DNA of 52,500 nt from a virus. The position numbers and the translations under genes were made by a program. The notes beneath the pieces are model-generated. The model had not been told where the DNA came from and made no database searches. It saw only the letters and a program-made list of their open reading frames with translations. The stretch is taken from the UHGV virus genome UHGV-0197997. The stretch is one strand, 5' to 3'. This document shows, piece by piece, positions 1,219 through 31,002 of this stretch. Position 1 is the first letter of the stretch; every line of letters starts with the position of its first letter.

Positions 1219-4200
1219 TTACGCGCCTGACACCCTGCCTTTTGCAATCTGGTGTACAAAATAAGATGACAACATCTCAATCATCACTTTGTTATGACTT
1301 GAGATAGTCGTTGGTATGCCAGACGCCAGGCGTGGGGAGAAACCATAGAAACGTCCGGACGAATACGGATTGGTAAGATAATCTTTTTCGTAGGCCTGAA
1401 CACAAGCCAGCAGAGCATTTCCGGTTGATACCCGTCGGACCAGCATCATCGTCAATGCAACGCTAACCGGAGTCGAAATGATCCCCCTTCGGCTTTCAGA
1501 AATAATGAAATCAATCCCCCGCAACCTGCCATCACCGCACAATCCCTGAAGTCCATAGTTGACGTTGTTAAACAGGGGCGTTCCGCCGAGTAACTCCGTC
1601 ATCATGAGGTATTCAGGCGCGAGGTCCATATCGTAGTTGTACCACCGGCTCCTTGCCAGGGAGGTGCTGACTGGCATCGAATCCAGCATGCTTGGCAGAT
1701 ATCGACCAATGGTGCTGCTATTGGTCAGATTCGTCATCACCGTGTTATAGCATGACTGGTAAGCTCCGCCAGTATCCATCCCGGCGTGTATTGCCAGCGC
1801 GACAAGCAGCATGCCGTAGATATTAATATTCACGGCGGCACTGACTGAAGATGGCGTATAGGTGTTCGGCACACCTCCTTTTGCTGCGACTGCTGTAACC
1901 ATTGCGTCAGCCCACGACTTAATATAAGGCTGCATTGCCGCCATTGTTGCAGTGTCACCCAAAAACTCAGCCGCACGATATACAGAAACACATGGCTTGA
2001 GTACCGGAGTGACCAAATCAGCAACATTAATAACTCCCTCCAGATAGCGGGCTCCGATATTAGTGCTTCGCCAGTTATCATCCCAGCACCGTTTAAACCT
2101 GGCCCATACTGCCGCAATATTAGGTGAGGGCTTTTGCAGTTCACGATACGCAAGATAACCCCACGGGGTATTAATATCATATGGCCCGGCATTCGAATCC
2201 ATACCGCCTATTCCAGCTGAGTCTCCATTCATCCAGAAGTCAGCAACCCCATCAAGCAATACTCTCAGCTTATTCTCAGCTTCTTTTACTGCAAAGTTAG
2301 GAAGCCTCCCGCCACGCGCAAAACCCACAGGCCGATTGTAAACTTTCTTCGCAAGCGTTAACGGGTCTGTTTCAGTTTCACTGGCATTCAGCCAGGCTTC
2401 AATGGTCCATGTCCAGTTTTTCTCAACCGGCCAGTTAAGAAATGAATAATCCGACAGGGATGAATATTGCCAGCCTGTGGTTACGCCCAGCGTAAACTCT
2501 GACGCGGCATTCGTCATCGTGATGCCTGTCGGTCTGGTTGGGCCCGCAGAGGTTCCATCCCTGTGAATATCCCCGTTTACAATGGTCGGCACATAGGAAA
2601 ACCTGCCGTTACCGGCTGTATTTCCGGTTGTGATTGCTGCAGCAGCGGTACCGGAATAGGCTGGAGTCGTCCCGTTTTTATAAATAACATTAGAGCTAAT
2701 AGTTGCTCCACACATCTTACCAACAGGAATATCCTCCAGGGCAGTCACCATGTTTTTCACAACGACGATTCCGTTTTTAAAAATGCGGAAGCGAGTGGTG
2801 GCCTTAATAATGCCTGCCGAATAAACGGCACTGGCGGCATTGTAGCCTGTGCGCTCAATCTCGGTAAAAAGCGGGCCGGTATTGATGACCTTCAGCGTAA
2901 CGTTGTAGGTGAAATACTCGATAACCTGAGCGCCTGCAGTCACGTAGCGATGCTGCGGGCTCAGCGTGCATCTGATACGGTTGATATCATCATTTTTAGC
3001 AGCATCAATGGATGTGAGGCCATAGGCTCCACCGGCAAAACCAAAGCGGTAATACAAATCACCCACTTTAATGTTATAACGCTTCAGGGCATCAGAAGGC
3101 GCGTAGTACTCCAGGCCTTCGGAATAGATCGTATCATCATAGCGATAACCAAAAACATCCACGTTATAATATTTTTTTTGTCCCGCCGATACGGAATCGA
3201 CGATCCACACGGCCCCCGTTTTGAATGAGCCATCAGGGTGATAACCTTCAGTTGACTGAAAGCGAAGGTTCACGAAATCATCTGCAGAAAATTGCGCATC
3301 AAACACGTTTCCTTCAGCGTCAGATACCTTAATGCAGTTGTGACCAAACACCATTCCTGCAGGGAAACTCACTTTTAACTCGACAGGACCACTGTAGTCG
3401 GTAGCCATGTCATTTACTACATCAGCAACAAAACGGGTAAAAGGGTTATTGTCAGTGTTCTGCCTGGAAATTCCGTTGTAATAAAGAATATCTGCGTCAA
3501 TGGTCAGATAATCGTTTACAGAAATTGTCGCAGGTTCGGCGCTTAATTTGGCAAGGTAAGCCGTTTTATATACTGATACATCGGTACTTCTGTAATAAAG
3601 ATGTACATCATCAAATGAGGCATAGAAATAGTTTTTAACGCCATCATCAGTAATGCTAAACCCTGCCCCCGTAATATCAGAATAGGGGAATGTTAGCTGG
3701 ATTGAGGTTGAGCCGTCAGGGTTAGAGTAAAGCGTGCAATATTTACCATCTGAGCCATACGCACCGGTGTTACCGGAAATAAAATCACCGGACTTGTCGA
3801 TAACGGCATAGGCAGTGATCGATTTATAGGTATTGATAAGCGGAACATTGGTAAATATTGCTCGGGCAACTGAATTTGTCTCATCAAACAAAACTGTTGC
3901 TGGTCTTAACTTTGCCAGTTGAACAGAGTGATATGGAGAGTTAAGTACATTATCAGCAAAGTATTCAGCCGGAAGTAGTTCTGCAATTACTGTTGTGACA
4001 CCGCTTTGCAGATGGGTTACTTTTAGTGTGTTTTTCTGGTTTCGGGCGTCAGAAGTTTCAGCAGCTGACAGGGAGTTAATGCGTAAAACAGATTCTTTCC
4101 CGACATTGACTACAGTGTCACCAGGCATTGAGATACTGGTAAACTTAGTTAGCGGAAGTGATGAGATTTCGCTAAGCAAAACATTAATGGTGCCAATTTT

Positions 4201-4572
4201 ATCATTTATGTATTCATATAAAGCACTTACTTTTGCATCAACCCCCGCACCTGAAGGCATTTTCCTTCCAGTTTCCTCAAGTGTACCGCCGTTATTGATC
4301 ACTTCGACGGCAAGAGCACTATCATCCGGGCTGCGGTAATACGTTGTCGAGCCAACAGGGATATTCACGATATCTGCCTGCGCATCTGCTAACGTCATGT
4401 ATTGCTTGCTGAGCGGGATCAGATTTTGATGGATGCCACGCCAGGTGTAAAGCAATTCGCCTGCGCGGTCAGGGAAGACCAGCGCCAGGCTATTCAGCAG
4501 GTTATCCAGGCGAGTGGCGTTATCGAGCAGCACCGCGGGCGAAGTGCTCCCCAGCTCCGGGTTAAAGGCCAT
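1219..4572 (-). CDS. Tail fiber / tailspike (putative receptor-binding protein), 1117 aa
   Basis: Last and largest gene of the tail module, directly downstream of the tip protein; assignment by size and position only. Confidence 0.55.
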   Translation of the reverse strand: MAFNPELGSTSPAVLLDNATRLDNLLNSLALVFPDRAGELLYTWRGIHQNLIPLSKQYMTLADAQADIVNIPVGSTTYYRSPDDSALAVEVINNGGTLEETGRKMPSGAGVDAKVSALYEYINDKIGTINVLLSEISSLPLTKFTSISMPGDTVVNVGKESVLRINSLSAAETSDARNQKNTLKVTHLQSGVTTVIAELLPAEYFADNVLNSPYHSVQLAKLRPATVLFDETNSVARAIFTNVPLINTYKSITAYAVIDKSGDFISGNTGAYGSDGKYCTLYSNPDGSTSIQLTFPYSDITGAGFSITDDGVKNYFYASFDDVHLYYRSTDVSVYKTAYLAKLSAEPATISVNDYLTIDADILYYNGISRQNTDNNPFTRFVADVVNDMATDYSGPVELKVSFPAGMVFGHNCIKVSDAEGNVFDAQFSADDFVNLRFQSTEGYHPDGSFKTGAVWIVDSVSAGQKKYYNVDVFGYRYDDTIYSEGLEYYAPSDALKRYNIKVGDLYYRFGFAGGAYGLTSIDAAKNDDINRIRCTLSPQHRYVTAGAQVIEYFTYNVTLKVINTGPLFTEIERTGYNAASAVYSAGIIKATTRFRIFKNGIVVVKNMVTALEDIPVGKMCGATISSNVIYKNGTTPAYSGTAAAAITTGNTAGNGRFSYVPTIVNGDIHRDGTSAGPTRPTGITMTNAASEFTLGVTTGWQYSSLSDYSFLNWPVEKNWTWTIEAWLNASETETDPLTLAKKVYNRPVGFARGGRLPNFAVKEAENKLRVLLDGVADFWMNGDSAGIGGMDSNAGPYDINTPWGYLAYRELQKPSPNIAAVWARFKRCWDDNWRSTNIGARYLEGVINVADLVTPVLKPCVSVYRAAEFLGDTATMAAMQPYIKSWADAMVTAVAAKGGVPNTYTPSSVSAAVNINIYGMLLVALAIHAGMDTGGAYQSCYNTVMTNLTNSSTIGRYLPSMLDSMPVSTSLARSRWYNYDMDLAPEYLMMTELLGGTPLFNNVNYGLQGLCGDGRLRGIDFIISESRRGIISTPVSVALTMMLVRRVSTGNALLACVQAYEKDYLTNPYSSGRFYGFSPRLASGIPTTISSHNKVMIEMLSSYFVHQIAKGRVSGA

Positions 4573-4649: not shown

Positions 4650-7600
4650 TTACGCGACGTTGCCGGGGTATGTGGCGTTGTCGTAGTCGTAAAATTCAGC
4701 GCGGTATTGCCGAGCGGTGACTTCGCATGTCCCGTCATCCTGCGGGACGACTTCGGACACAATGGCGTCGTAGAGGTCACTCTCTGAGCTGCTGAAAATT
4801 AACCGGGGCGGTTCGATTATCGGATCGTCCATCAGGATATCGGCAAACTCGGATTGATACGGAACGGATACCTGATAGTTGTCTCCCGTCGGTGATGCCT
4901 CAAACAGCCGTGACGCCGTACCATCCTGATACCGTAGAAAGATTCGCGGATTTGCAAACGTCCAGTCCAGCGGCTCCGATACGTCGAATATTGTCACCCC
5001 ACCAGCAGTAGCCATTGACTCAATCAAACACGAAATGGTGTTACTGCCGGGAATGTCATCCGTCAGCACAATACGATCCCCGACGTTGTAGCAGAGCGCG
5101 TCCAGCTCCGTCGTCGTTTTATGCGTCATGCGCTGCAGCTGGTATTTTCGCAATCTGCGCATACCAATCTGGTACGCGTGATCGGGATTGCCTACCCCAT
5201 CAGCCCGATATGCCTCTATTTTCTGAGGTGTCGGGTTGTCCGGTGTCCGGCATTGCACCGTTTCTTCTGCCCACGTCGTGCCGTTGATATAGGTGACATC
5301 AACACCATCGTAATCATCGTCGGTCACCGTGCTGAAATCGGTCTGCAGCTCGGACACCATCTCATGAGGGGTGATAGCCCCGGTCCAGGGTTTAACCCCT
5401 TCCCGGCCAACTGACGCAACAGATTGGGTATTCAGCAGAAAATAACTCTTACCTGCGGCAGCGATTTTTTGCAGCATTTCCAGTGCGGAGATACTGTCTC
5501 CCGTAAAATAATCGAAGGTTTCGCCGTTCGGGGTCCAGTACGCCTGCTCCAGCGCATCAATCGCTACCGTGTCCATCTCCATATCCAGAGAGCGACCGAC
5601 GTGGTAGAGCGCGCCAGAAATACTACGGGCAACGCCAGAATCATAAATCCGCGTGGCTACAACGTTTACGCGGCGGTCAGACTGCGCCGCCAATTTGCCG
5701 CCCGTCTCAACCGTAACGCCCATCAGGGTGACGCCAGCATAGGATGATGGCCGAGCCAGCAGCCGACCGCGTAGCGCCTGCCAGTACATCGAGTCGCGTG
5801 CGTTGTTCGACCCCTGCTCGTTCAGACGCCTACAGCGAACTTCGACGAGACCAGGTGAAACCAGATTGAATCGCTCCGTGAAGCCGAGGCCGTTAACGTT
5901 CTTCAGCGCATAGACGCCCTGCTTGCTCGTCCAGCCAGCACCCGATCCATATACACGGTACTGAATTTCCCATTCGCAATGGCGAATTCTTTTTTTGCCT
6001 TTGCTGTCAAACCCACAAATGCCAGACGGAAACGAGAAATTCACCTCGAAAGCGTCCACTACTTCATTTTCCGGACAGACAAGGAAAGGTCCCATCCAGG
6101 TGTTGTTGTCGCTGATCCCCGTAGCCTGGTAGTCAATCATCGTGCGCGGTGAGAATCCAGGCCAGGAAGGATCAACCGCCCCATCAATGACTCGCTGGAC
6201 CATTGCTGTAGTGCCGTCTGCATCAGCAATGCGATATTCGTTACCACGATGTGCCAGAGAAAGCCGCTGCGAGCCTTCCGGGATGCCCGAGAATGCAGCC
6301 CCGGTGACACTGCCATACGCCAGCGTGACGTTTGCAGTAATTGCAGGGCTCCCACCACTCGATGCTGTCCCGAGAGTAAACTCAGGGTCATCGCCGAAAA
6401 CTGATACAGGGAAAATTGAATCGATATCTCCGCCTTTCCACGGGCTAGAAATTTCCACGATCCGCACAACTCCGCCGTCGTCATGGGCAATCAATCCAGA
6501 CCCCGTAAGCCTGGAGTTAATTGCATCCAGCAACCCTGACATTGTGATGTAGTTATCCACAAGCTGAACGAAATAGTAGTTGCCCTGCCAGAACAGAGAG
6601 AAGTTTTCATTATTTACTGAAAAATCGTACGTGGTTGGTGCAGCATTTCCACGCACCGCAGCAGCGGTTCCCCCGACACCAGGCACTGCATCCTGTTTTG
6701 GGGTATAGGTAGCAATGAACAGATCATACTGGGCGCCGTTAATTTCTAGCGTGACCGGCATTCCTGGGCTCGGGTTAATCTCAGCGATAAGATCATTTGT
6801 CAGTACGCTATAACCCGCCGACGTCGATACCTGGAAATTAGCAGGCGCGACAATTGTCACCAGCGCGCCAGTAACCCAGGATTCTGGCAGCGAGTTCCCC
6901 TCATCATCGTCAACGCTGGAATCGACCAACCCCGAAAACGTTACGGAGGGCCCTGAAACCGTCATGCTGTCGGCAGTGATATCGGTAGAATCTGGCGAAG
7001 TCTGGGCCATATCAAGACCGCTTCCGCTGGAAGTGCCACCGACCTCTGTCGAGTTGAACCAGTTTTCACTACGCCGATCACCTGAGACATCCGAACCAGG
7101 TGCATAAACGTTGTGACTAAACGAATCCCCTAACGCCAAAATTGGAGTTGAGCCCACCCTAATATCGCCATTCGTAAACGCGAAGTTCCCTTTCCCCAGG
7201 CAAACCATCATTTCGACCGTCATTAGCGTCGGATCATCAGGGTTAAAACGGGTCACGGGTTGCACAACATAATCGGGATAGATACGGCAGCGGCCAAACA
7301 CCTCACGAATGGGATCGCCCAGCTTAGCCTGGTTCGCTTTAGCCGGGTTTAAATCCAGCCCTAAACCATTTGAGGACGAGTACCCGCCTTTATCCATGTT
7401 CGACATGGTGATCAGCACATAAACAGCAGAGGCTGCAGCAATAGCCGCTGCCGCCCATGCCGCGATTGTCGTCGCCGTCACACCCTCACCCGGGATCGGG
7501 TAGGCTTTTACGTCGCTCTCAGCCCTGATAAAACATAAAGGCCATTCTGCCGGCGGGACCGGTTTACCGTTAACCTCGAAGGAGACACGCTGCGCCATCT

Positions 7601-7715
7601 CGTTACGGTAGTTATCGACGTGCTGCAGCATCCAGTCGTGAAGCGTCGTATCCCGGTGCTCATACGTTTCCAGCGGCTCACCAGGCAGACGCGAAGGGTA
7701 TAATCGAATAGTCAC
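4650..7715 (-). CDS. Tail tip / host-specificity protein (gpJ-like position), 1021 aa
   Basis: Large ORF after the NlpC/P60 tail gene; stop overlaps start of upstream gene; contains Ala-rich hydrophobic segment TIAAWAAAAIAAASAVYVLI. Confidence 0.55.
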   Translation of the reverse strand: MTIRLYPSRLPGEPLETYEHRDTTLHDWMLQHVDNYRNEMAQRVSFEVNGKPVPPAEWPLCFIRAESDVKAYPIPGEGVTATTIAAWAAAAIAAASAVYVLITMSNMDKGGYSSSNGLGLDLNPAKANQAKLGDPIREVFGRCRIYPDYVVQPVTRFNPDDPTLMTVEMMVCLGKGNFAFTNGDIRVGSTPILALGDSFSHNVYAPGSDVSGDRRSENWFNSTEVGGTSSGSGLDMAQTSPDSTDITADSMTVSGPSVTFSGLVDSSVDDDEGNSLPESWVTGALVTIVAPANFQVSTSAGYSVLTNDLIAEINPSPGMPVTLEINGAQYDLFIATYTPKQDAVPGVGGTAAAVRGNAAPTTYDFSVNNENFSLFWQGNYYFVQLVDNYITMSGLLDAINSRLTGSGLIAHDDGGVVRIVEISSPWKGGDIDSIFPVSVFGDDPEFTLGTASSGGSPAITANVTLAYGSVTGAAFSGIPEGSQRLSLAHRGNEYRIADADGTTAMVQRVIDGAVDPSWPGFSPRTMIDYQATGISDNNTWMGPFLVCPENEVVDAFEVNFSFPSGICGFDSKGKKRIRHCEWEIQYRVYGSGAGWTSKQGVYALKNVNGLGFTERFNLVSPGLVEVRCRRLNEQGSNNARDSMYWQALRGRLLARPSSYAGVTLMGVTVETGGKLAAQSDRRVNVVATRIYDSGVARSISGALYHVGRSLDMEMDTVAIDALEQAYWTPNGETFDYFTGDSISALEMLQKIAAAGKSYFLLNTQSVASVGREGVKPWTGAITPHEMVSELQTDFSTVTDDDYDGVDVTYINGTTWAEETVQCRTPDNPTPQKIEAYRADGVGNPDHAYQIGMRRLRKYQLQRMTHKTTTELDALCYNVGDRIVLTDDIPGSNTISCLIESMATAGGVTIFDVSEPLDWTFANPRIFLRYQDGTASRLFEASPTGDNYQVSVPYQSEFADILMDDPIIEPPRLIFSSSESDLYDAIVSEVVPQDDGTCEVTARQYRAEFYDYDNATYPGNVA

Positions 7716-8098
7716 TGGTAATACTCCACTTTCAGGAACTGACGCTCAAAACGCGCCAGGGGGAGAATGGTTACGTTTCGCCGGGGGTTGCATTCGATCA
7801 CGTAAAGCAACCCCTCCATTTCGACGACTACGCCAAGATGGCCGATCATTTTCCCCATATAGCAGGCGGCCACCGCTCCGTTGCACGGCCTGCAGGGAGT
7901 CAGGTCACGCGAAAAACTCTCGCAAAATTCCCCCATCCCCGTGCTGCCTGGCTCTTTAATCACAGCCTCAAACGCAGGCCATTCAGGAAGGCCGAGGTCA
8001 CGGCGAACCTCATGCACAATGCCGTAGCAGTCGAGAATAGGAAAAGCGCGGCCGCCCATCTGCCAGCGGACAGTCAGGTATTTATCAATGTTAAGCAT
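7712..8098 (-). CDS. Tail-associated NlpC/P60-family peptidase (gpK-like position)
   Basis: DCYG motif (catalytic Cys context) and downstream GHLGVVVE His motif typical of NlpC/P60; located between minor tail genes and tip protein. Confidence 0.55.
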   Translation of the reverse strand: MLNIDKYLTVRWQMGGRAFPILDCYGIVHEVRRDLGLPEWPAFEAVIKEPGSTGMGEFCESFSRDLTPCRPCNGAVAACYMGKMIGHLGVVVEMEGLLYVIECNPRRNVTILPLARFERQFLKVEYYQ

Positions 8099-8105
8099 GG
8101 GATAC

Positions 8106-8588
8106 CTATCGGGAGTAACGAAGACCCTGGAAGTACGTGAGGGTGTAGCGATCGCGCGGCCATGCGTAATCGAGCATGTTTTTAAATCCGGCGGTCACGT
8201 TCACCGTAAGCGGCGTCCACGAGCCCCCTTTAACCGGCATGATGTAAGGCGGCTCCGCCGGTGCGGTCAGGTCAGTGGAAATGTACTTCCTGAACGTAAT
8301 GCTGGCACTGGATATGGCATCAATGGCCCTGCGTATAGCAGTGGAAACAACGCCATCGATGTTGCAAAGCATAAATTTCAGGTCCTGCGTGCCATCCTCG
8401 TTTCTGGCAGGAAGAGACAGAACAATGGCGCAGGCGATAAACGTTACGGTAGCCCCCTCTTCGGTAACGGCCGTAATATCCTCGTACCCCTCACACAAAT
8501 AATGAGACTGGCCGCCAATATCGACCTGTAACGTACCGATAATGACCTCCTCCCCGGAGGAGGCATAAAGGCGATTAATCGCTGTCAT
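8106..8588 (-). CDS. Minor tail protein
   Basis: Position between tape measure and tip genes; overlapping stop/start with neighbours. Confidence 0.4.
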   Translation of the reverse strand: MTAINRLYASSGEEVIIGTLQVDIGGQSHYLCEGYEDITAVTEEGATVTFIACAIVLSLPARNEDGTQDLKFMLCNIDGVVSTAIRRAIDAISSASITFRKYISTDLTAPAEPPYIMPVKGGSWTPLTVNVTAGFKNMLDYAWPRDRYTLTYFQGLRYSR

Positions 8589-9048
8589 GTTTAGGCCACT
8601 CCTTATTCAAGGCGATATCCAGAAGAGACTGTCCTGCAAGCCACTCTGGATATTTACCCCACCCATCAGGCGGCATTGGCATTTCCCGCACTTCCAGAGT
8701 CGCACTAAATTGCCAGTATTTTCCCCCAATTAATGTTGGCCCTTCATAGACTGCAGTAAACCGGCTTTTGTAAAACCCAATGCCAACCGGAGTTTTTAAT
8801 TTCATCATGAACCATGAACTGCCCCCGAGCAGAGAATCACGGTACCAGGCCATAAATACCTGAGCCTGGGCGTCAGAGGTAAGTATCCATCTAACCGAAA
8901 CTGAAGCTGGCGTTGAGACGAACCTTCGGCGCTGCCTGGCAAGACCGGTGACCATCTCGGTTCTTAAGAGATTATCAACAGATTTGAACCCATAGCCGTC
9001 CTGCAACGGAAGAGGAAGGTACTCATGTGGGTAATAAATATCAGTCAC
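8575..9048 (-). CDS. Minor tail protein (distal tail, immediately after tape measure)
   Basis: Position directly downstream of tape measure gene. Confidence 0.4.
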   Translation of the reverse strand: MTDIYYPHEYLPLPLQDGYGFKSVDNLLRTEMVTGLARQRRRFVSTPASVSVRWILTSDAQAQVFMAWYRDSLLGGSSWFMMKLKTPVGIGFYKSRFTAVYEGPTLIGGKYWQFSATLEVREMPMPPDGWGKYPEWLAGQSLLDIALNKEWPKHDSD

Positions 9049-24793: not shown

Positions 24794-25423
24794 TTACCCC
24801 ACCAATACCGATTTTGCCTTCAGGAAACGGGCACGCCGATCATCAACTCCGTTCTGCCCGCCGTTGATAATCAGGGTGACGCGGACCAGGTCACCGGGAT
24901 ATTTCAGGCAGCCCTTACTGGCATAAAACCAGGCCGCACTTCGTGCCGCGTATTCGTCCTGCGCCAGTAGTTCAGGCTGGACCACCAGATCGACCTTCAA
25001 CCCGGTCCCGCAATCCCGGTAATTCGTCAGTCCGGTGATATGGATAAGACCACGGCCACGATATAGCCAGCCATCACCAGGGCCTTTGTTGCCATTCCTT
25101 TTGTTGTAGGCAAGGTTGGCGATCGCCCGCTGGCGCGCAAGCGGTAGTGACGGCTCACCCTGCCGGCGTCCGAGGGAATTGGCCTGGTCCTGCGTCAGTC
25201 GCCCGGCGCGCACAAATCCCGCCAGCCCGGTAACGCTGTAATTGAAACTCTCCACCAGTTGGGTAAACCCGACGCTTTCATGCCCGACCTGAGCAATAAA
25301 CATCGCCTGGTCGACAGGCGCCGTAATGCCGAATTCTTTCATTGCTGCAGTGATATGCGGATACCAGCGCGCAGCTAAGCCGGCGCTGATACCAGCCGCC
25401 TGCTGAAATTGTGATTGATTCAT
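24794..25423 (-). CDS. Endolysin, glycoside hydrolase family 19-like
   Basis: GH19-type motifs (QVGHESVGF, GRGLIHITG); follows holin. Confidence 0.8.
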   Translation of the reverse strand: MNQSQFQQAAGISAGLAARWYPHITAAMKEFGITAPVDQAMFIAQVGHESVGFTQLVESFNYSVTGLAGFVRAGRLTQDQANSLGRRQGEPSLPLARQRAIANLAYNKRNGNKGPGDGWLYRGRGLIHITGLTNYRDCGTGLKVDLVVQPELLAQDEYAARSAAWFYASKGCLKYPGDLVRVTLIINGGQNGVDDRRARFLKAKSVLVG

Positions 25424-25704
25424 TAGTGCCTCAGTGTATCGACCAGGCGCGCCACGTTACCCCGTGCCCACAGCACGGCGGCGCAGATAAGGATGTTTGC
25501 CAGTACCACCAGCCAGTGGGACTGTACGTAAAGACCGAAGATAAACTGGAAGGGAATGCTCGCGTAAATCAGCACAAGCACATAAGCAAGTACGGAAATT
25601 CCTGGGCGATGCCGGGAACCGCGACGTTGATAAAACATCAACGCACAGACGATAACGACACAAATAACAGCATTGGCCAGTGCAGCAGGGTCATTTATTA
25701 CCAC
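25423..25704 (-). CDS. Holin (small 3-TM membrane protein)
   Basis: 93 aa with three hydrophobic helices and charged C-terminus; overlaps upstream membrane ORF. Confidence 0.6.
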   Translation of the reverse strand: MVINDPAALANAVICVVIVCALMFYQRRGSRHRPGISVLAYVLVLIYASIPFQFIFGLYVQSHWLVVLANILICAAVLWARGNVARLVDTLRH

Positions 25705-26086
25705 TCGAACCTCCTCCCCTAAATCGGGAAAGTATTCCGAACAGGCTGCTCAGATCCTGGCTGTTGATGAAAGTCAGGACCCTGATAGTGATAGCTGATG
25801 CCACCACTGCACCGAGCGCATCAAGCGGGCGGTCTGTATAGCCTGTCCAGGCAGTAAATTTTGAGCCTAATAGTCCAGCAGCCAGAACACCGACAATAAA
25901 CGATGTCATGAAGTAGGCTATCTGCCTCCCTCGTGTCAGGTTCGCGGTCGTTGCCACATAAAACACCGCACCACCAAAGGCTCCAAACACCACACCAAAA
26001 TCGGTATGAGTAATAACGCCATAAGCGACAGAACCAATTAACCCGCCTCCAAAAATAAGGCCGGTACCAGTTAAAGGATCGGACAT
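25691..26086 (-). CDS. Holin-like Gly-rich membrane protein (holin/antiholin candidate)
   Basis: 131 aa, multiple Gly-rich hydrophobic helices; first gene of lysis cassette. Confidence 0.5.
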   Translation of the reverse strand: MSDPLTGTGLIFGGGLIGSVAYGVITHTDFGVVFGAFGGAVFYVATTANLTRGRQIAYFMTSFIVGVLAAGLLGSKFTAWTGYTDRPLDALGAVVASAITIRVLTFINSQDLSSLFGILSRFRGGGSSGNK

Positions 26087-26204
26087 AGGCCCCTCTTATT
26101 GCTGTGAGTCCTCTCAGTAATGAGGGGAAATAGAAACAGGCTTAACGGGCCGGATTTATCAACAAAGCACGTCGAGGATGATTCCCGTAAGCTTGAAAGT
26201 TAAT

Positions 26205-26258
26205 TTCCTAGTTATTAGGAATTAATAGCACTTTTGGATATTTCCTAACAACTAGGAA
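26205..26258 (+). promoter_or_regulatory. Two 17-bp palindromic operator-like sites TTCCTA-N5-TAGGAA
   Basis: Palindromes at 26205-26221 and 26242-26258 directly upstream of plus-strand two-gene module. Confidence 0.5.
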
Positions 26259-26319
26259 ATTGATAAGATGTTTTCACGGTAAGGCAACTGGCCAACCGAT
26301 AACCAACGAGGGTTTCGAA

Positions 26320-26478
26320 ATGTTCAACTCAATCAGCGATGCAAAAACTTTTCTGTTCAATCACGGTATGATCGATTTCATCGACCTTGACCGCGAGGCC
26401 GAAATTGTCGAAGACCTGTATCGCAATGCAACTGACGCCGACAGCGCTGAAGCCATCATCAACAGCTACGTCATTTAA
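26320..26478 (+). CDS. Small acidic protein, 52 aa
   Basis: ATG preceded by GAGGG; Asp/Glu-rich; the track's upstream TTG start is less likely. Confidence 0.45.
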   Translation: MFNSISDAKTFLFNHGMIDFIDLDREAEIVEDLYRNATDADSAEAIINSYVI

Positions 26479-26522
26479 AATTCTGATAGCCTCGCGTGAT
26501 GCGGGCCTAAAGGTGAGATGCT

Positions 26523-26915
26523 ATGAACAATCTGGAAAAATTACGCGCTGTTGGGGAAGCGGTATATGGGGATAAGTGGCAGTCTGCACTTTCACGCGCC
26601 CTCGGTATTTCTGACCGTACCGTGAGGAATTTCGTGTCTGGGAAGTCCCAACCGGAAAACTTATCAAATCGCTTACTCGAGGCGATGGAGCTTGAAATGG
26701 GGAAAATCAAAGCGGCCATCGACATCATCAATAGCGACAAGTTGCGTGGTGACGACATCTCTATTGAGATGATTACTCAAATTGCAGACCGCTACGAATA
26801 CTGTGATGAACAAGATCGTAAGGCTGCGATAGACGCAATGAACAATGCAGTTTACGAGGAAACATTCCTCTCCGACCTGGAAGCAATAGCGATCAGACTC
26901 GCAATACGCCATTAA
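26523..26915 (+). CDS. HTH DNA-binding protein
   Basis: HTH-like segment QSALSRALGISDRTVRNFVSG; follows small acidic ORF; hairpin 26920-26943 after stop. Confidence 0.55.
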   Translation: MNNLEKLRAVGEAVYGDKWQSALSRALGISDRTVRNFVSGKSQPENLSNRLLEAMELEMGKIKAAIDIINSDKLRGDDISIEMITQIADRYEYCDEQDRKAAIDAMNNAVYEETFLSDLEAIAIRLAIRH

Positions 26916-26930
26916 TGTTAAGCCCACGCG

Positions 26931-27161
26931 TTAACGTGGGCTTAAATTGGGGTGTGGTGCTGAGTGCCTCTCAGTAAGCCTTTGGTCAGCAACCATGACT
27001 TGCGGTCCGAGTGAATCATAAGGATTCCATTTAAGCTGTTTCCGCCCCTCCGCACAGGGGGATTCACCACGCCAATAATTTATAGCTACTTCATTCCCAT
27101 CGTCAATAGCAAGCACTCTGTCAAAGGCACCCGAAGATGCCTTTTGCACAGTGTTATTCAC
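26931..27161 (-). CDS. Hypothetical protein, 76 aa
   Basis: ORF downstream of small membrane ORF; stop lies in hairpin loop; weak support. Confidence 0.3.
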   Translation of the reverse strand: MNNTVQKASSGAFDRVLAIDDGNEVAINYWRGESPCAEGRKQLKWNPYDSLGPQVMVADQRLTERHSAPHPNLSPR

Positions 27162-27309
27162 TGGACTTAATTAACGGCCAGAGTAAAGCAATTACTCCGG
27201 CCACCAGCACGCCATCTGCCAGGATGGACATCATTTTGCTGGTGAAGTCGATGGCAACCACCAAGAACAAAAGCACCCCGGCAGCGCCCCAGCGAAGTTT
27301 GCCAATCAC
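27154..27309 (-). CDS. Small two-helix membrane protein, 51 aa
   Basis: GTG start overlapping TerB-like stop as GTGA; hydrophobic segments GAAGVLLFLVVAI and GVLVAGVIALLW. Confidence 0.35.
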   Translation of the reverse strand: MIGKLRWGAAGVLLFLVVAIDFTSKMMSILADGVLVAGVIALLWPLIKSSE

Positions 27310-27728
27310 AGATACTGATCCAGAGGAAGCTGCAGAGCCTGGGAGATTTTCTTCAGAGCCACCTCTTCTTCTTCACCAATACCATCGTTATCTGCAATAT
27401 CCAGACAGAGGCAGAGAACATCCACTGCATCAGAGGTACCGGCAACATCAGCCAGTTGACGAATAGCTTCGGCGTTAGCTGAACGCGGGGAAGCTTCGTA
27501 ACGAGCGCGAATGTTCGAACTCATCTGGGCAATTTCACCAGCGAACGGGGCAAATGCCGGCAGCGCGGAGATAGTTTTCTCCAGTACCGCAATCTCTTTT
27601 GCATCACAGGTGCCATCCGCATACGCAATCGAGTATGCGCCCCAGACAGTTGCCTCTACCGCATCGCGGTTCTCCATCTTCTTAACTTCTGCTACTGCCT
27701 TACGTGCTTTTTTACCGAATCCAAACAT
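27306..27728 (-). CDS. TerB-like (tellurite-resistance TerB family) domain protein
   Basis: Two ADG-type motifs (IAYADGTCDAKE and LDIADNDGIGEEEE). Confidence 0.55.
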   Translation of the reverse strand: MFGFGKKARKAVAEVKKMENRDAVEATVWGAYSIAYADGTCDAKEIAVLEKTISALPAFAPFAGEIAQMSSNIRARYEASPRSANAEAIRQLADVAGTSDAVDVLCLCLDIADNDGIGEEEEVALKKISQALQLPLDQYL

Positions 27729-28038: not shown

Positions 28039-28114
28039 TGGTGCTGGTTGACGGAATCGAACCACCGACATCCTACTTACAAGGCAGGTGCTCTACCTAC
28101 TGAGCTAAACCAGC
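28039..28114 (-). tRNA. tRNA-Thr (anticodon UGU), phage-encoded
   Basis: Hand-folded cloverleaf: acceptor GCTGGTT/AACCAGC, D-arm GCTC-AGTAGGTA-GAGC, anticodon loop CTTGTAA, T-loop TTCGATT, encoded CCA; T-stem needs two wobble pairs; 5' end overlaps methyltransferase stop by 10 nt. Confidence 0.55.
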
Positions 28115-29154
28115 AAATTGCGCATTTCACTGACCGTCTGTTCAAACCGCTCGGTTTCCAGTTCAACGCCGATTCCACTCCGCCCGAGTAGAGCAGCTTG
28201 CTTTAGTGTGGAACCAGAACCAGCAAAGAAATCAGCTACGACCTCCCCCGGCCGACTGCTTGCAGTAATGATCTGCTGGAGCATATCGGCAGGTTTTTCG
28301 CATGGGTGCTTACCTGGGTAGAACTGAACAGGCTTATGAGTCCACACGTCGGTATACGGCACCGAGACGGAAACACTAAACGGCCTCCGCAGGCAGTGAT
28401 ACTCCTGCTGAAGTTCGCAGTATTTCCGGTTAAGAGATTGCCATGTTGCGACAAGCTGGTGATGGGGCTTAGCAAGTTCGTTTCGTGAGTGTTTATCTCT
28501 GGCAATTTGCTGGAACAACGTCTGCAATTTCAGGTAATCGGCTTCGTTCGGTAACTGCCACTGGCTAAGACCGAACCAGTGAGAAACCATGTTTTTCTTA
28601 CCTGTGGCAACTGTAATTTCTGCTGACGTTACTCCAAGAGATTCTCTGGCTTCCCGGAAATAGGAAATCAGTGGAGTCATGACATGCTGCTTGAGTTCAT
28701 TGCTCTTAGCAGCAAACCCATCATCTTTCGGATTATATGGCCCTTGATAATGATCGGCGAAAATGATGCGCTCCGTCGCAGGGAAATATGAGCGCAGGCT
28801 CTCTTTGCTGCATCCGTTCCAGCGCCCGGAAGGTTTTGCCCAGATAATATGGTTAAGCAGGTTAAAACGCTCGCGGACCAGTATCTCAATGTCCGCCGCC
28901 AGCCGGTGCCCGCAGAAAAGATACATGCTGCCCGAAGGTTTCAAAACCCGCCAGAAGTGGGCCAGACAACTATCGAGCCATCGCAAATAGTCATCATCCC
29001 CATTCCATTGATTGTCCCAACCGTTCGGCTTCACCTTAAAGTAAGGCGGGTCAGTAACGATCAAGTCGATGGAGTTATCTGGAAGCGATGGAAGAAATTG
29101 CAGGCAGTCAGCATTGATTAACTCAATACTGGATATTTTTACAGTATTTTTCAT
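28105..29154 (-). CDS. DNA methyltransferase, beta-class (N6-adenine or N4-cytosine), orphan
   Basis: DPPY motif (LIVTDPPYF) N-terminal to SAM motif DFFAGSGST; no adjacent restriction gene. Confidence 0.8.
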   Translation of the reverse strand: MKNTVKISSIELINADCLQFLPSLPDNSIDLIVTDPPYFKVKPNGWDNQWNGDDDYLRWLDSCLAHFWRVLKPSGSMYLFCGHRLAADIEILVRERFNLLNHIIWAKPSGRWNGCSKESLRSYFPATERIIFADHYQGPYNPKDDGFAAKSNELKQHVMTPLISYFREARESLGVTSAEITVATGKKNMVSHWFGLSQWQLPNEADYLKLQTLFQQIARDKHSRNELAKPHHQLVATWQSLNRKYCELQQEYHCLRRPFSVSVSVPYTDVWTHKPVQFYPGKHPCEKPADMLQQIITASSRPGEVVADFFAGSGSTLKQAALLGRSGIGVELETERFEQTVSEMRNLLV

Positions 29155-30225: not shown

Positions 30226-30984
30226 CTATCGTGTCACTTCCTTCAGTTTCTGCTCAGCGAAGGTCTCCTCTTGCCAGCATTTTGTAACCAGAATATTGAT
30301 CACCTCGGCATATCCGCTATACCACTGATAATTGGTCATATCAGGTACCAGCCGTATTACTCGATCTTTTACCAGTGTCGTAGGCAAACGGCTGTAACCC
30401 TTGCCATTACACCGTCCACATAGTTTTTGCACAGGTACTTTATGCAACTCAGTACGTTTTTTATCGAGTACGAGGCCGCGTCCACGGCAGTCCCTGCACG
30501 CTGTACTGATCCAGCCCTTCCCTGCGCAATGACTGCATGTTGACTCAACCTCTTCAGGTTTAATCGTAGGTGGGATGCCTTTCACTCCAGGGTGTTTAAC
30601 AACGTCCTTTACCTCCCGAATGACTCGCTGCCCATTGCATTGTGGGCATGTGCTCTTGCTGGCAGCTGAACGCGCATAATCATTGAAAGCAAAAGTTGCT
30701 AAGCAAGAAGCCATTTCAATACGAATACTTTCGGAAAGTTTGGACATTACAGGGTTCTTTAATGTCATCGCGTAATTGGTTAGTTGCTCGATAGCCGGCT
30801 CGGGATCCTGAATACCCATTTTTGCGAGAAACAAATTGAAGCCAAATCGAGCCTGGGCAGACGCCATACCTTGTGCTGCCATAACATCCGTAATCGTTAG
30901 TGAAGTGCCCCCAGTAGCCGGAGTTTCATCATTAAGCTTTGGTGACTTTGGGGAATAAAATTTCGGTAATGATTCAAGTTTCAT
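30226..30984 (-). CDS. Q: Late antiterminator Q (Cys-rich zinc-binding type)
   Basis: Start MKLESLPKFYSPKSP with SD GGAG; Cys-rich CPQC...CSHC...CRDC...CGRC; upstream of late promoter/terminator. Confidence 0.65.
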   Translation of the reverse strand: MKLESLPKFYSPKSPKLNDETPATGGTSLTITDVMAAQGMASAQARFGFNLFLAKMGIQDPEPAIEQLTNYAMTLKNPVMSKLSESIRIEMASCLATFAFNDYARSAASKSTCPQCNGQRVIREVKDVVKHPGVKGIPPTIKPEEVESTCSHCAGKGWISTACRDCRGRGLVLDKKRTELHKVPVQKLCGRCNGKGYSRLPTTLVKDRVIRLVPDMTNYQWYSGYAEVINILVTKCWQEETFAEQKLKEVTR

Positions 30985-31002
30985 GTTAAGCACTCCATAC
31001 AC

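Follow-up and report, generated by a model that had tools for sequence, protein, structure and literature searches.

A two-gene cassette with palindromic operators in virus genome UHGV-0197997 probably represents an acr-aca-type anti-defence operon

What is the function of a small operon that is preceded by two perfect palindromes and oriented against the late genes of the prophage in which it lies? The question arises from a 52,500-nucleotide stretch of virus genome UHGV-0197997 (the whole stretch analyzed here, hereafter the window), in which genes for an acidic 52-amino-acid (aa) protein and a 130-aa helix-turn-helix (HTH) protein follow each other on the plus strand, between minus-strand lysis genes and the gene for TerB. 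The initial annotation had described this gene order correctly and had regarded the pair as an autoregulated cassette, either toxin-antitoxin-like or a regulatory switch. Based on a comparison with about 25 related loci, the upstream regions of which were aligned, we consider it probable that the module is an anti-defence operon of the acr-aca type, in which an anti-CRISPR (acr) gene is coupled to a gene for an anti-CRISPR-associated (Aca) regulator, and that it is carried as a portable cassette. This reading draws on the anatomy of the operon, the co-variation of operator and regulator, the swapping of cargo genes, covariation in the leader RNA and linkage to anti-CRISPR genes. The kind of system is known; the regulator family, the 52-aa family and the leader motif are apparently new. 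Coordinates of all features in the window are collected in Table 1.

The two 17-bp palindromes, TTCCTAGTTATTAGGAA at 26205-26221 and TTCCTAACAACTAGGAA at 26242-26258, lie exactly where they had first been placed, with a start-to-start spacing of 37 bp. They are the sole exact copies of TTCCTA-N5-TAGGAA in the 52.5-kb window, compared with none in 100 dinucleotide-preserving shuffles; with two mismatches allowed, 1.4 matches are expected and the test is powerless. The proximal palindrome, O1, extends to a perfect 8+5+8 palindrome, ATTTCCTA-N5-TAGGAAAT. Its left half-site doubles as the -35 hexamer of a predicted sigma-70 promoter and, as the alignment of loci shows, the 17-bp spacer contains the remainder of the palindrome and is followed by the -10 hexamer, so that O1 covers both the -35 element and the spacer. 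From its position at about -26, a protein bound to O1 would exclude RNA polymerase. An inverted repeat within the core promoter is also the arrangement described for Aca families (PMC9410906).

The half-sites of O1 co-vary with helix 3 of the HTH protein. The TTCCTA half-sites are kept in 14 loci, with a variable N5, and are accompanied by a helix 3 reading ..DRT(V/I)RNF... The remaining combinations are GCCCTA with ..RSF.. (L220), GACCTA with ..RRY.. or ..RRF.. (L003 and L228), and GTACG or GCACG with ..RRW.. (L011-13 and L230). These matching changes predict that the palindrome is the regulator's own site. Consistently, two close relatives (L005 and L226, with HTH proteins 98% and 89% identical, respectively) keep both palindromes and the 37-bp spacing while N5 differs, which is the signature of a dimer-binding site. 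The initial annotation had named lack of conservation of the palindromes, or absence of the two open reading frames, in relatives as evidence against its proposal; the proximal palindrome proved to be kept in homologues, and the proposal is not refuted on these grounds.

The promoter itself escaped a consensus promoter scanner, which did not report it at 26241-26269, because its -35 hexamer agrees with the consensus at only three of six positions. Where the operator imposes this poor -35 (TTTCCT), the -10 element usually carries a TG extension; loci whose operator supplies a good -35 (TTGACC) lack it. The spacing from the -10 element to a CACGG motif and the leader hairpin is invariant across loci, and this fixed distance places the predicted transcription start at about 26276, 1-2 nt before the first stem-loop. 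A CRP site that matches the consensus perfectly, TGTGATATAAATCACA, is found in L002 at about 5684-5699, centred at -61.5 from the predicted start, and near-consensus CRP sites lie upstream of the operators at -53.5 (L218) and -62.5 (L007). The positions of these sites roughly correspond to that of the distal operator, O2, in the window (-63), and some cassettes may be activated by cyclic AMP-CRP.

A constant operator, -10 element and leader on one side and HTH homologues of 42-98% identity on the other flank four kinds of first gene. The 52-aa family occupies this slot in the window and in nine further loci (L002, L003, L005, L008, L009, L217, L219, L221 and L226), a Gp111-like protein of 116-164 aa in eight (L007, L010-L013, L220, L222 and L228), a 68-aa acidic protein in L230 and a 63-aa protein in L006. 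The latter, which begins MTTITINTYD, is 63% identical to AcrIE8.2 (E 2e-27), and in L012 and L214-216 a second operator unit precedes it. AcrIE8 has been validated as an anti-CRISPR against type I-E (PMC7648647); it works in K. pneumoniae (PMC11781037) and, according to the title of PMC12883894, binds Cas11. Moreover, a protein encoded after the HTH gene in L012 appears in the list of AcrIF16 homologues of PMC7648647; here, a ROS/MucR zinc-finger protein is fused to an AcrIF16-like region. As in acr-aca operons, the HTH gene thus lies downstream of the cargo within the same operon, its homologues are linked to a validated acr gene and an inverted repeat is found within the core promoter.

The comparison also indicates that the module is separate from both the phage backbone and the late operon. 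Homology to Klebsiella phage 1 LV-2017, the closest Klebsiella phage, stops at 26141 and restarts at 27043 (local blastn), the same flanks bracketing 331 unrelated bases in that phage. A megablast search of 26090-26960 against phages and E. coli genomes returned 26090-26141 as the sole match, that is the region just upstream of the holin gene, which is common to Klebsiella phages and E. coli prophages. The lysis backbones in which the module is found antisense between Q-side and lysis genes number at least four and are unrelated (L226, L214-216, L218 and L219); it lies next to a minus-strand antiterminator gene in L217 and next to integrase or early accessory genes in L220-222 and L228. Genomes of Klebsiella pneumoniae, K. 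oxytoca and Raoultella encode exact copies of its proteins, under no annotation other than hypothetical, and relatives of 42-47% identity occur on conjugative IncF plasmids. It therefore sits in accessory hot spots of prophages as well as on IncF plasmids. Together with the co-variation of operator and helix 3, the absence of 26142-27042 from the closest phage bears out the initial view of an operator-controlled unit apart from the late operon, and we propose that the module is a portable cassette.

Leader RNA is the third constant element. The leader of about 45 nt is conserved even where the downstream gene is unrelated. Its hairpin 1 was returned independently by RNAalifold; 98% of cells were paired, compared with at most 54% in slid controls, and compensatory changes affect four of the seven pairs. 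Outer stem variants are CGGU/ACCG, CGGC/GCCG, CAGC/GCUG and UGGU/ACCA, and inner stem variants are GGC/GCC, GGG/CCC and GGAA/UUCC. When folded singly, all 17 leaders formed hairpin 1 and 16 formed hairpin 2 as well; for the latter, two of four pairs covary in the model-fitted alignment. A covariance model, R1, found exactly one copy in the window (26275-26322, 70.4 bits) and one or two in each related locus. No Rfam family matches the leader at 26270-26322 (E ≤ 5), and we regard the motif as a putative new one, outside Rfam. A scan of viral contigs with a 16-nt leader pattern yielded only contigs known via the HTH protein, plus chance matches, and in a single metagenome scan, only chance matches were present among the matches listed. 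In addition, 15 of 19 loci have a GC-rich hairpin between the first gene and the HTH gene, irrespective of what the former encodes. The window copy is degraded and thermodynamically weak (z -0.23), and the element may be an attenuator or a stabilizer. Such roles, for the leader as for the intergenic hairpin, are suggested by position alone.

From these observations we derive a working model, in which DNA binding, repression, the transcription start, the roles of the hairpins and the anti-defence activity of the 52-aa protein are predictions. The host sigma-70 promoter, with its weak -35 and extended -10 element, would be constitutive and fire once the DNA enters the cell, giving an early burst of the 52-aa protein that precedes repression by the HTH protein. 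The transcript would begin 1-2 nt before a 5'-terminal stem-loop that probably stabilizes the mRNA, while hairpin 2, carrying the ribosome-binding site, probably tunes translation. The acidic protein would inhibit a host defence system, with a type I CRISPR-Cas complex as the leading candidate target because AcrIE8 fills the same slot in relatives. A dimer of the 130-aa protein would bind O1, over the -35 element and spacer, and the auxiliary O2, 37 bp upstream, and would thereby shut the promoter in Aca-style negative autoregulation. The intergenic hairpin probably lowers the output of the regulator relative to the cargo.

The cargo gene of the window is real and under purifying selection: it comprises exactly 52 codons in nine loci and its ratio of nonsynonymous to synonymous substitution rates ranges from 0.07 to 0.41, with synonymous sites near saturation. 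The protein contains 11 Asp/Glu and 3 Lys/Arg residues (net charge about -8) and is modelled as a three-helix bundle with a predicted local distance difference test score (pLDDT) of 86. No match to it was found in Pfam, PHROGs, NCBIfam, PADLOC or fold and profile searches of the PDB, nor by tblastn against phage records, and the family is not in the Acr supplementary lists of Pinilla-Redondo 2020 (PMC7648647) or Shehreen 2022. Homology to AcrIE8 was considered and rejected (hhalign probability 0.6% over 7 columns). A 72-aa reading from TTG 26260, annotated in one metagenome record, was likewise rejected: the extension overlaps the -10 element, its frame is shifted between loci by one-base indels in the hairpin loop, and a stop codon interrupts it in L002. 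We propose the 52-aa protein as a candidate anti-defence (anti-CRISPR-like) protein of a new family. The initial annotation had offered, as an alternative, a DNA-mimic-type anti-restriction factor; the anti-defence part of that suggestion comes close to the explanation favoured by the comparison, which points to the acr-aca type, while for a relation to Ocr- or ArdA-type mimics no Pfam or PDB match was obtained and acidity alone fits.

The HTH gene starts 44 nt past the 52-aa gene on the same strand, and no promoter-like site was found between the two. The AlphaFold model of the regulator has a pLDDT of 93.8. Solved structures match its N-terminal domain only, among them P22 c2, HigA2, GraA, Aca10 and Aca2, the PDB fold libraries including solved Aca2 and Aca10 chains. 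In Pfam, sub-threshold hits to HTH_3 and YdaS were the only ones, with no hit to Aca2_YdiL; none of the PDB chains retrieved with a profile (E ≤ 10) bears the name Aca, and motifs of the family were not found in the supplementary lists of Pinilla-Redondo 2020 (PMC7648647) and Shehreen 2022. Size and architecture are unlike those of Aca3-10 (60-70 aa). We regard the protein as a probable autorepressor of the Aca type that has a second domain and belongs to an apparently unnamed family; 'unnamed' is provisional, as the sequence comparison covered Aca2 and the solved Aca structures. Full-length members are few: clustering at 90% identity gave 40 clusters, and a search of 1.84 billion representatives gave six at E ≤ 1e-30. 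The family is confined to Enterobacterales.

Across relatives, the C-terminal domain is the best-conserved part of the regulator, and the two domains also occur apart. Many proteins of 60-95 aa match aa 1-70 alone. Residues 73-128 alone are matched by a few acidic proteins of 60-71 aa, by one tandem duplicate and by one fusion to a different HTH. In L223, a phage-like contig, a solo C-domain gene even stands in the cargo position, ahead of a different small HTH gene and behind a weak hairpin 1 match (11.9 bits, E 0.32). A further candidate solo protein, P0073, was rejected as a pseudogene remnant, and for a solo C-domain protein of Xenorhabdus no record of the gene context was found. Such solo and fused forms leave room for the C-terminal domain as an effector, beyond mere oligomerization. 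By extension, the regulator could be a bifunctional Aca-Acr fusion with aa 73-128 as an anti-defence effector, and the two-hairpin leader a new class of cis-regulatory RNA common to anti-defence operons, whatever their operator specificity. We consider this extended proposal doubtful, and that the C-terminal domain has anti-defence activity is no more than a conjecture.

Several observations weigh against the acr-aca reading as a whole. The regulator falls into none of the Aca families tested (the Aca2_YdiL Pfam family and, by sequence, the solved Aca structures), and neither sequence nor fold relates the 52-aa protein to a known Acr. O2 is restricted to close relatives and absent from more distant ones. 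The leader of the window folds no better than shuffled sequence (z -0.54), so that its structure is argued from covariation alone. The 'AcrVA2-like' label met in some relatives (see below) stems from precomputed Pfam hits and was not reproduced with a local Pfam copy. Some cargo is large or of unclear role, such as the Gp111-like proteins and the combination of a DEAD helicase and a methyltransferase, and with cargo this diverse the regulator could control accessory genes in general. Finally, the reading as a whole is built on sequence and its comparison.

The diversity of cargo is also what speaks for a general accessory-gene ('moron') cassette, in which the HTH protein times or limits the expression of any cargo and the 52-aa protein serves a purpose other than defence inhibition, such as superinfection exclusion, host takeover or lysogenic conversion. 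The positions between Q and lysis genes or near the integrase are classic for such genes, and the 52-aa protein has no known relatives. Nevertheless, wherever a cargo or neighbour family has a known function, that function relates to anti-CRISPR (AcrIE8, the AcrIF16 homologue list and 'AcrVA2-like', the last label being the one not reproduced), helicase and methyltransferase genes are reported within acr-aca operons (PMC13551039), and small size combined with strong acidity is typical of Acr and anti-restriction proteins (PMC7648647). We thus judge the general cassette to be rather unlikely.

The comparison does not support the toxin-antitoxin-like arrangement that the initial annotation had put forward, that is a type II system with the toxin first (HigBA- or YdaS/YdaT-like), comprising a 52-aa toxin and an HTH antitoxin and repressor. 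The order of a small gene followed by an HTH gene and the palindromic operator in the promoter would fit, as would the weak likeness of the HTH to the HigA, GraA and VapI antitoxins, the sub-threshold YdaS_toxin hits and the label 'antidote protein VapI' that one source gives to a homologue. However, the partner of an HTH protein that is 42-98% identical, and best conserved in its C-terminal domain, is swapped among four unrelated families, including a validated anti-CRISPR, and separate neighbouring operons stand behind the same operator unit. Moreover, the 52-aa protein is acidic and helical and matches no toxin family in Pfam, PDB fold, NCBIfam or PADLOC searches. A toxin-antitoxin system is accordingly very unlikely. 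A switch resembling restriction-modification controller (C) proteins, with the HTH protein acting on paired palindromes (C-boxes) to delay a downstream enzyme, is more improbable still, as any XRE-type HTH would show this likeness, small acidic cargo is all that most loci carry, the operon in the window lacks a restriction or modification gene (the methylase at 28105-29154 being on the other strand), and both cargo swapping and the AcrIE8 linkage argue against it.

Among known systems, the acr-aca type to which the module probably belongs offers a close counterpart in acrIF8-aca2 of Pectobacterium phage ZF40. In both, small cargo precedes a regulator of about 120-130 aa whose N-terminal HTH is joined by a C-terminal domain, an inverted repeat lies over the promoter with a second repeat nearby, and the 5' untranslated region (UTR) is structured (PMC13551039, PMC9410906); both have neighbouring operons with extra sites, sometimes followed by helicase genes (PMC13551039). 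A 2026 report on Aca1, Aca2 and other families (PMC13551039) described cargo of the helicase or methyltransferase kind, additional operator units in front of neighbouring operons and structured 5' UTRs, with structured 5' UTR motifs in the acr-aca1 and acr-aca2 operons, and these shared features mark the present system as one of a known kind. The acr loci linked to aca5 and aca9 (AcrIE8, AcrIF15-22; Pinilla-Redondo 2020), found in prophages and plasmids of Enterobacterales, have the same hosts (Klebsiella, Raoultella and Salmonella), the same cargo families as the relatives studied here (AcrIE8, AcrIF16-like) and the same pattern of shuffled cargo around a fixed regulator, but Aca5 (60 aa) and Aca9 (69 aa) are single-domain proteins, in contrast to the two-domain, 130-aa regulator. 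AcrIIA1 and other Acr-Aca fusions likewise have a small second domain attached to an N-terminal repressor domain of the HTH type, although there is no similarity in sequence or fold beyond the HTH; in the present family, each of the two domains is also found as a separate small protein. The HigA, GraA and VapI antitoxins share the XRE-type HTH, the second position in a two-gene operon and the palindromic operator, but here a cognate toxin is lacking and the partner is variable and not toxin-like.

If the acr-aca reading is true, the 130-aa HTH family and the leader provide a new marker for the association-based discovery of anti-defence genes in prophages of Klebsiella, Raoultella, Salmonella and E. 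coli and on IncF plasmids, that is in clinically relevant hosts, and at least three candidate cargo families are nominated: the 52-aa, the 67-68-aa acidic and the Gp111-like proteins. In K. pneumoniae, type I-E CRISPR-Cas limits the uptake of resistance plasmids and prophage-borne AcrIE8 lifts this barrier (PMC11781037); another inhibitor carried by prophages in this slot would consequently matter for how resistance plasmids spread. With the leader, one more case joins the recent finding of structured 5' UTRs in acr-aca operons. For the field, the finding is incremental.

Table 1. Positions of the cassette elements and neighbouring features in the 52,500-nucleotide window
Feature	Position	Strand	Remarks
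Endolysin gene	24794-25423	minus	left of module
Holin gene, Phage_holin_3_7	25423-25704	minus	left of module
Holin gene, Phage_holin_8	25691-26086	minus	left of module
Variable cassette slot	26142-27042		blastn against Klebsiella phage 1 LV-2017
Distal operator O2 (predicted)	26203-26223		core TTCCTA-GTTAT-TAGGAA, 26205-26221; centre about -63 from predicted transcription start
Proximal operator O1 (predicted)	26240-26260		ATTTCCTA-ACAAC-TAGGAAAT; core 26242-26258; centre about -26
Predicted sigma-70 promoter	26241-26269	plus	-35 TTTCCT (26241-26246), 17-bp spacer, extended -10 TGATAAGAT (26261-26269)
Structured 5' leader	26275-26322	plus	covariance model, covariation
Hairpin 1	26277-26298	plus	outer stem CGGU/ACCG, inner stem GGC/GCC
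Hairpin 2	26301-26314	plus	AACC/GGUU; Shine-Dalgarno GAGGG in loop and 3' arm
Cargo gene, 52 aa	26320-26478	plus	ATG start; GAGGG 8 nt upstream
Intergenic GC-rich hairpin	26489-26507	plus	between cargo and HTH genes; imperfect, one C.C mismatch
Regulator gene, 130 aa	26523-26915	plus	HTH and second domain
N-terminal domain (aa 1-72)	26523-26738	plus	XRE-type HTH and long helix
C-terminal domain (aa 73-130)	26739-26912	plus	acidic alpha/beta domain, conserved
STnc100-family small RNA (RF02076, prophage small RNA family)	26915-27101	minus	72.3 bits, gathering score 47
GC hairpin, 9 bp	26920-26943		directly past HTH stop codon
DUF3927 gene	27154-27309		between module and TerB
TerB gene	27306-27728		right of module
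tRNA gene	28042-28114	minus	69.9 bits
DNA methylase gene, 349 aa	28105-29154	opposite to module	in late region
Q antiterminator gene	30226-31002	minus	phrog_127, E 6e-89

Beyond the first genes, the related loci carry further genes around the cassette. A gene for a ROS/MucR zinc-finger protein of 130-370 aa directly follows the HTH gene in L007, L012, L218, L221 and L228 and often overlaps the HTH stop codon. A Cas1-like gene (Pfam Cas_Cas1, 40.6 bits) is present in Salmonella and metagenomic relatives (L214-L216, 5931-7605; L217, 1260-2961) and overlaps a gene with a precomputed 'AcrVA2-like' Pfam hit. In L214-216, this pair follows the AcrIE8 homologue behind a second operator-promoter-leader unit; in L217, the HTH gene and a 124-aa gene precede it. 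It is odd to find a solo Cas1 within an anti-CRISPR locus. In P0035, a 198-aa protein of Salmonella enterica, an AcrIE8-like N-terminus is fused in-frame to the HTH regulator, representing an Acr-Aca fusion that is natural or, alternatively, an operon with a frameshift.

Second operator-promoter-leader units are predicted to drive neighbouring operons in L011/L013, L012, L214-216 and L220. In L220, the stretch 5560-8850, which includes such a unit past the HTH gene (GCCCTA-N5-TAGGG, with hairpin 1), also holds the genes that the unit would drive: a 177-aa gene, a DEAD/ResIII helicase gene, an N6/N4 methyltransferase gene and a 146-aa gene. L230 is the conjugative IncF plasmid p2_STEC383 of E. 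coli (NZ_CP091028.1), in which the cassette occupies 2729-4396, directly after a gene for a TIR-domain protein and about 3 kb downstream of repA. It combines the operator TTGCACG-N7-CGTGCAA with a leader of 50.8 bits, the 68-aa acidic cargo and an HTH protein of 42% identity.

The surroundings of the module in the window are the minus-strand late region of a lambdoid, Klebsiella-type prophage and, with Q on one side and the lysis genes on the left, the plus-strand module is antisense within the late Q-to-lysis region. Two features between the module and TerB, the STnc100 match and the DUF3927 gene, had escaped the initial annotation. Directly past the HTH stop codon, the hairpin at 26920-26943 has a fold energy of -18 kcal/mol (z -3.4) and lies inside the STnc100 match, as its 3' hairpin. 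Since this hairpin abuts the HTH stop codon, one stem-loop is common to both convergent transcripts, and it probably acts as a two-way transcription stop; the terminator function is a prediction, as a clear U-tract is found on neither strand. L226 has a canonical terminator at the matching position. A mechanical 76-aa open reading frame at 26931-27161 was rejected as a gene: the STnc100 match covers it and explains the stretch better. Further to the right, the tRNA gene overlaps the end of the 349-aa DNA methylase gene by 10 nt. To the left of the module, an inverted repeat, CCCCTC ... GAGGGG at 26094-26131, spans the ribosome-binding region of the minus-strand holin gene, within the one stretch in common with Klebsiella phages and E. 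coli prophages, and may control holin translation.

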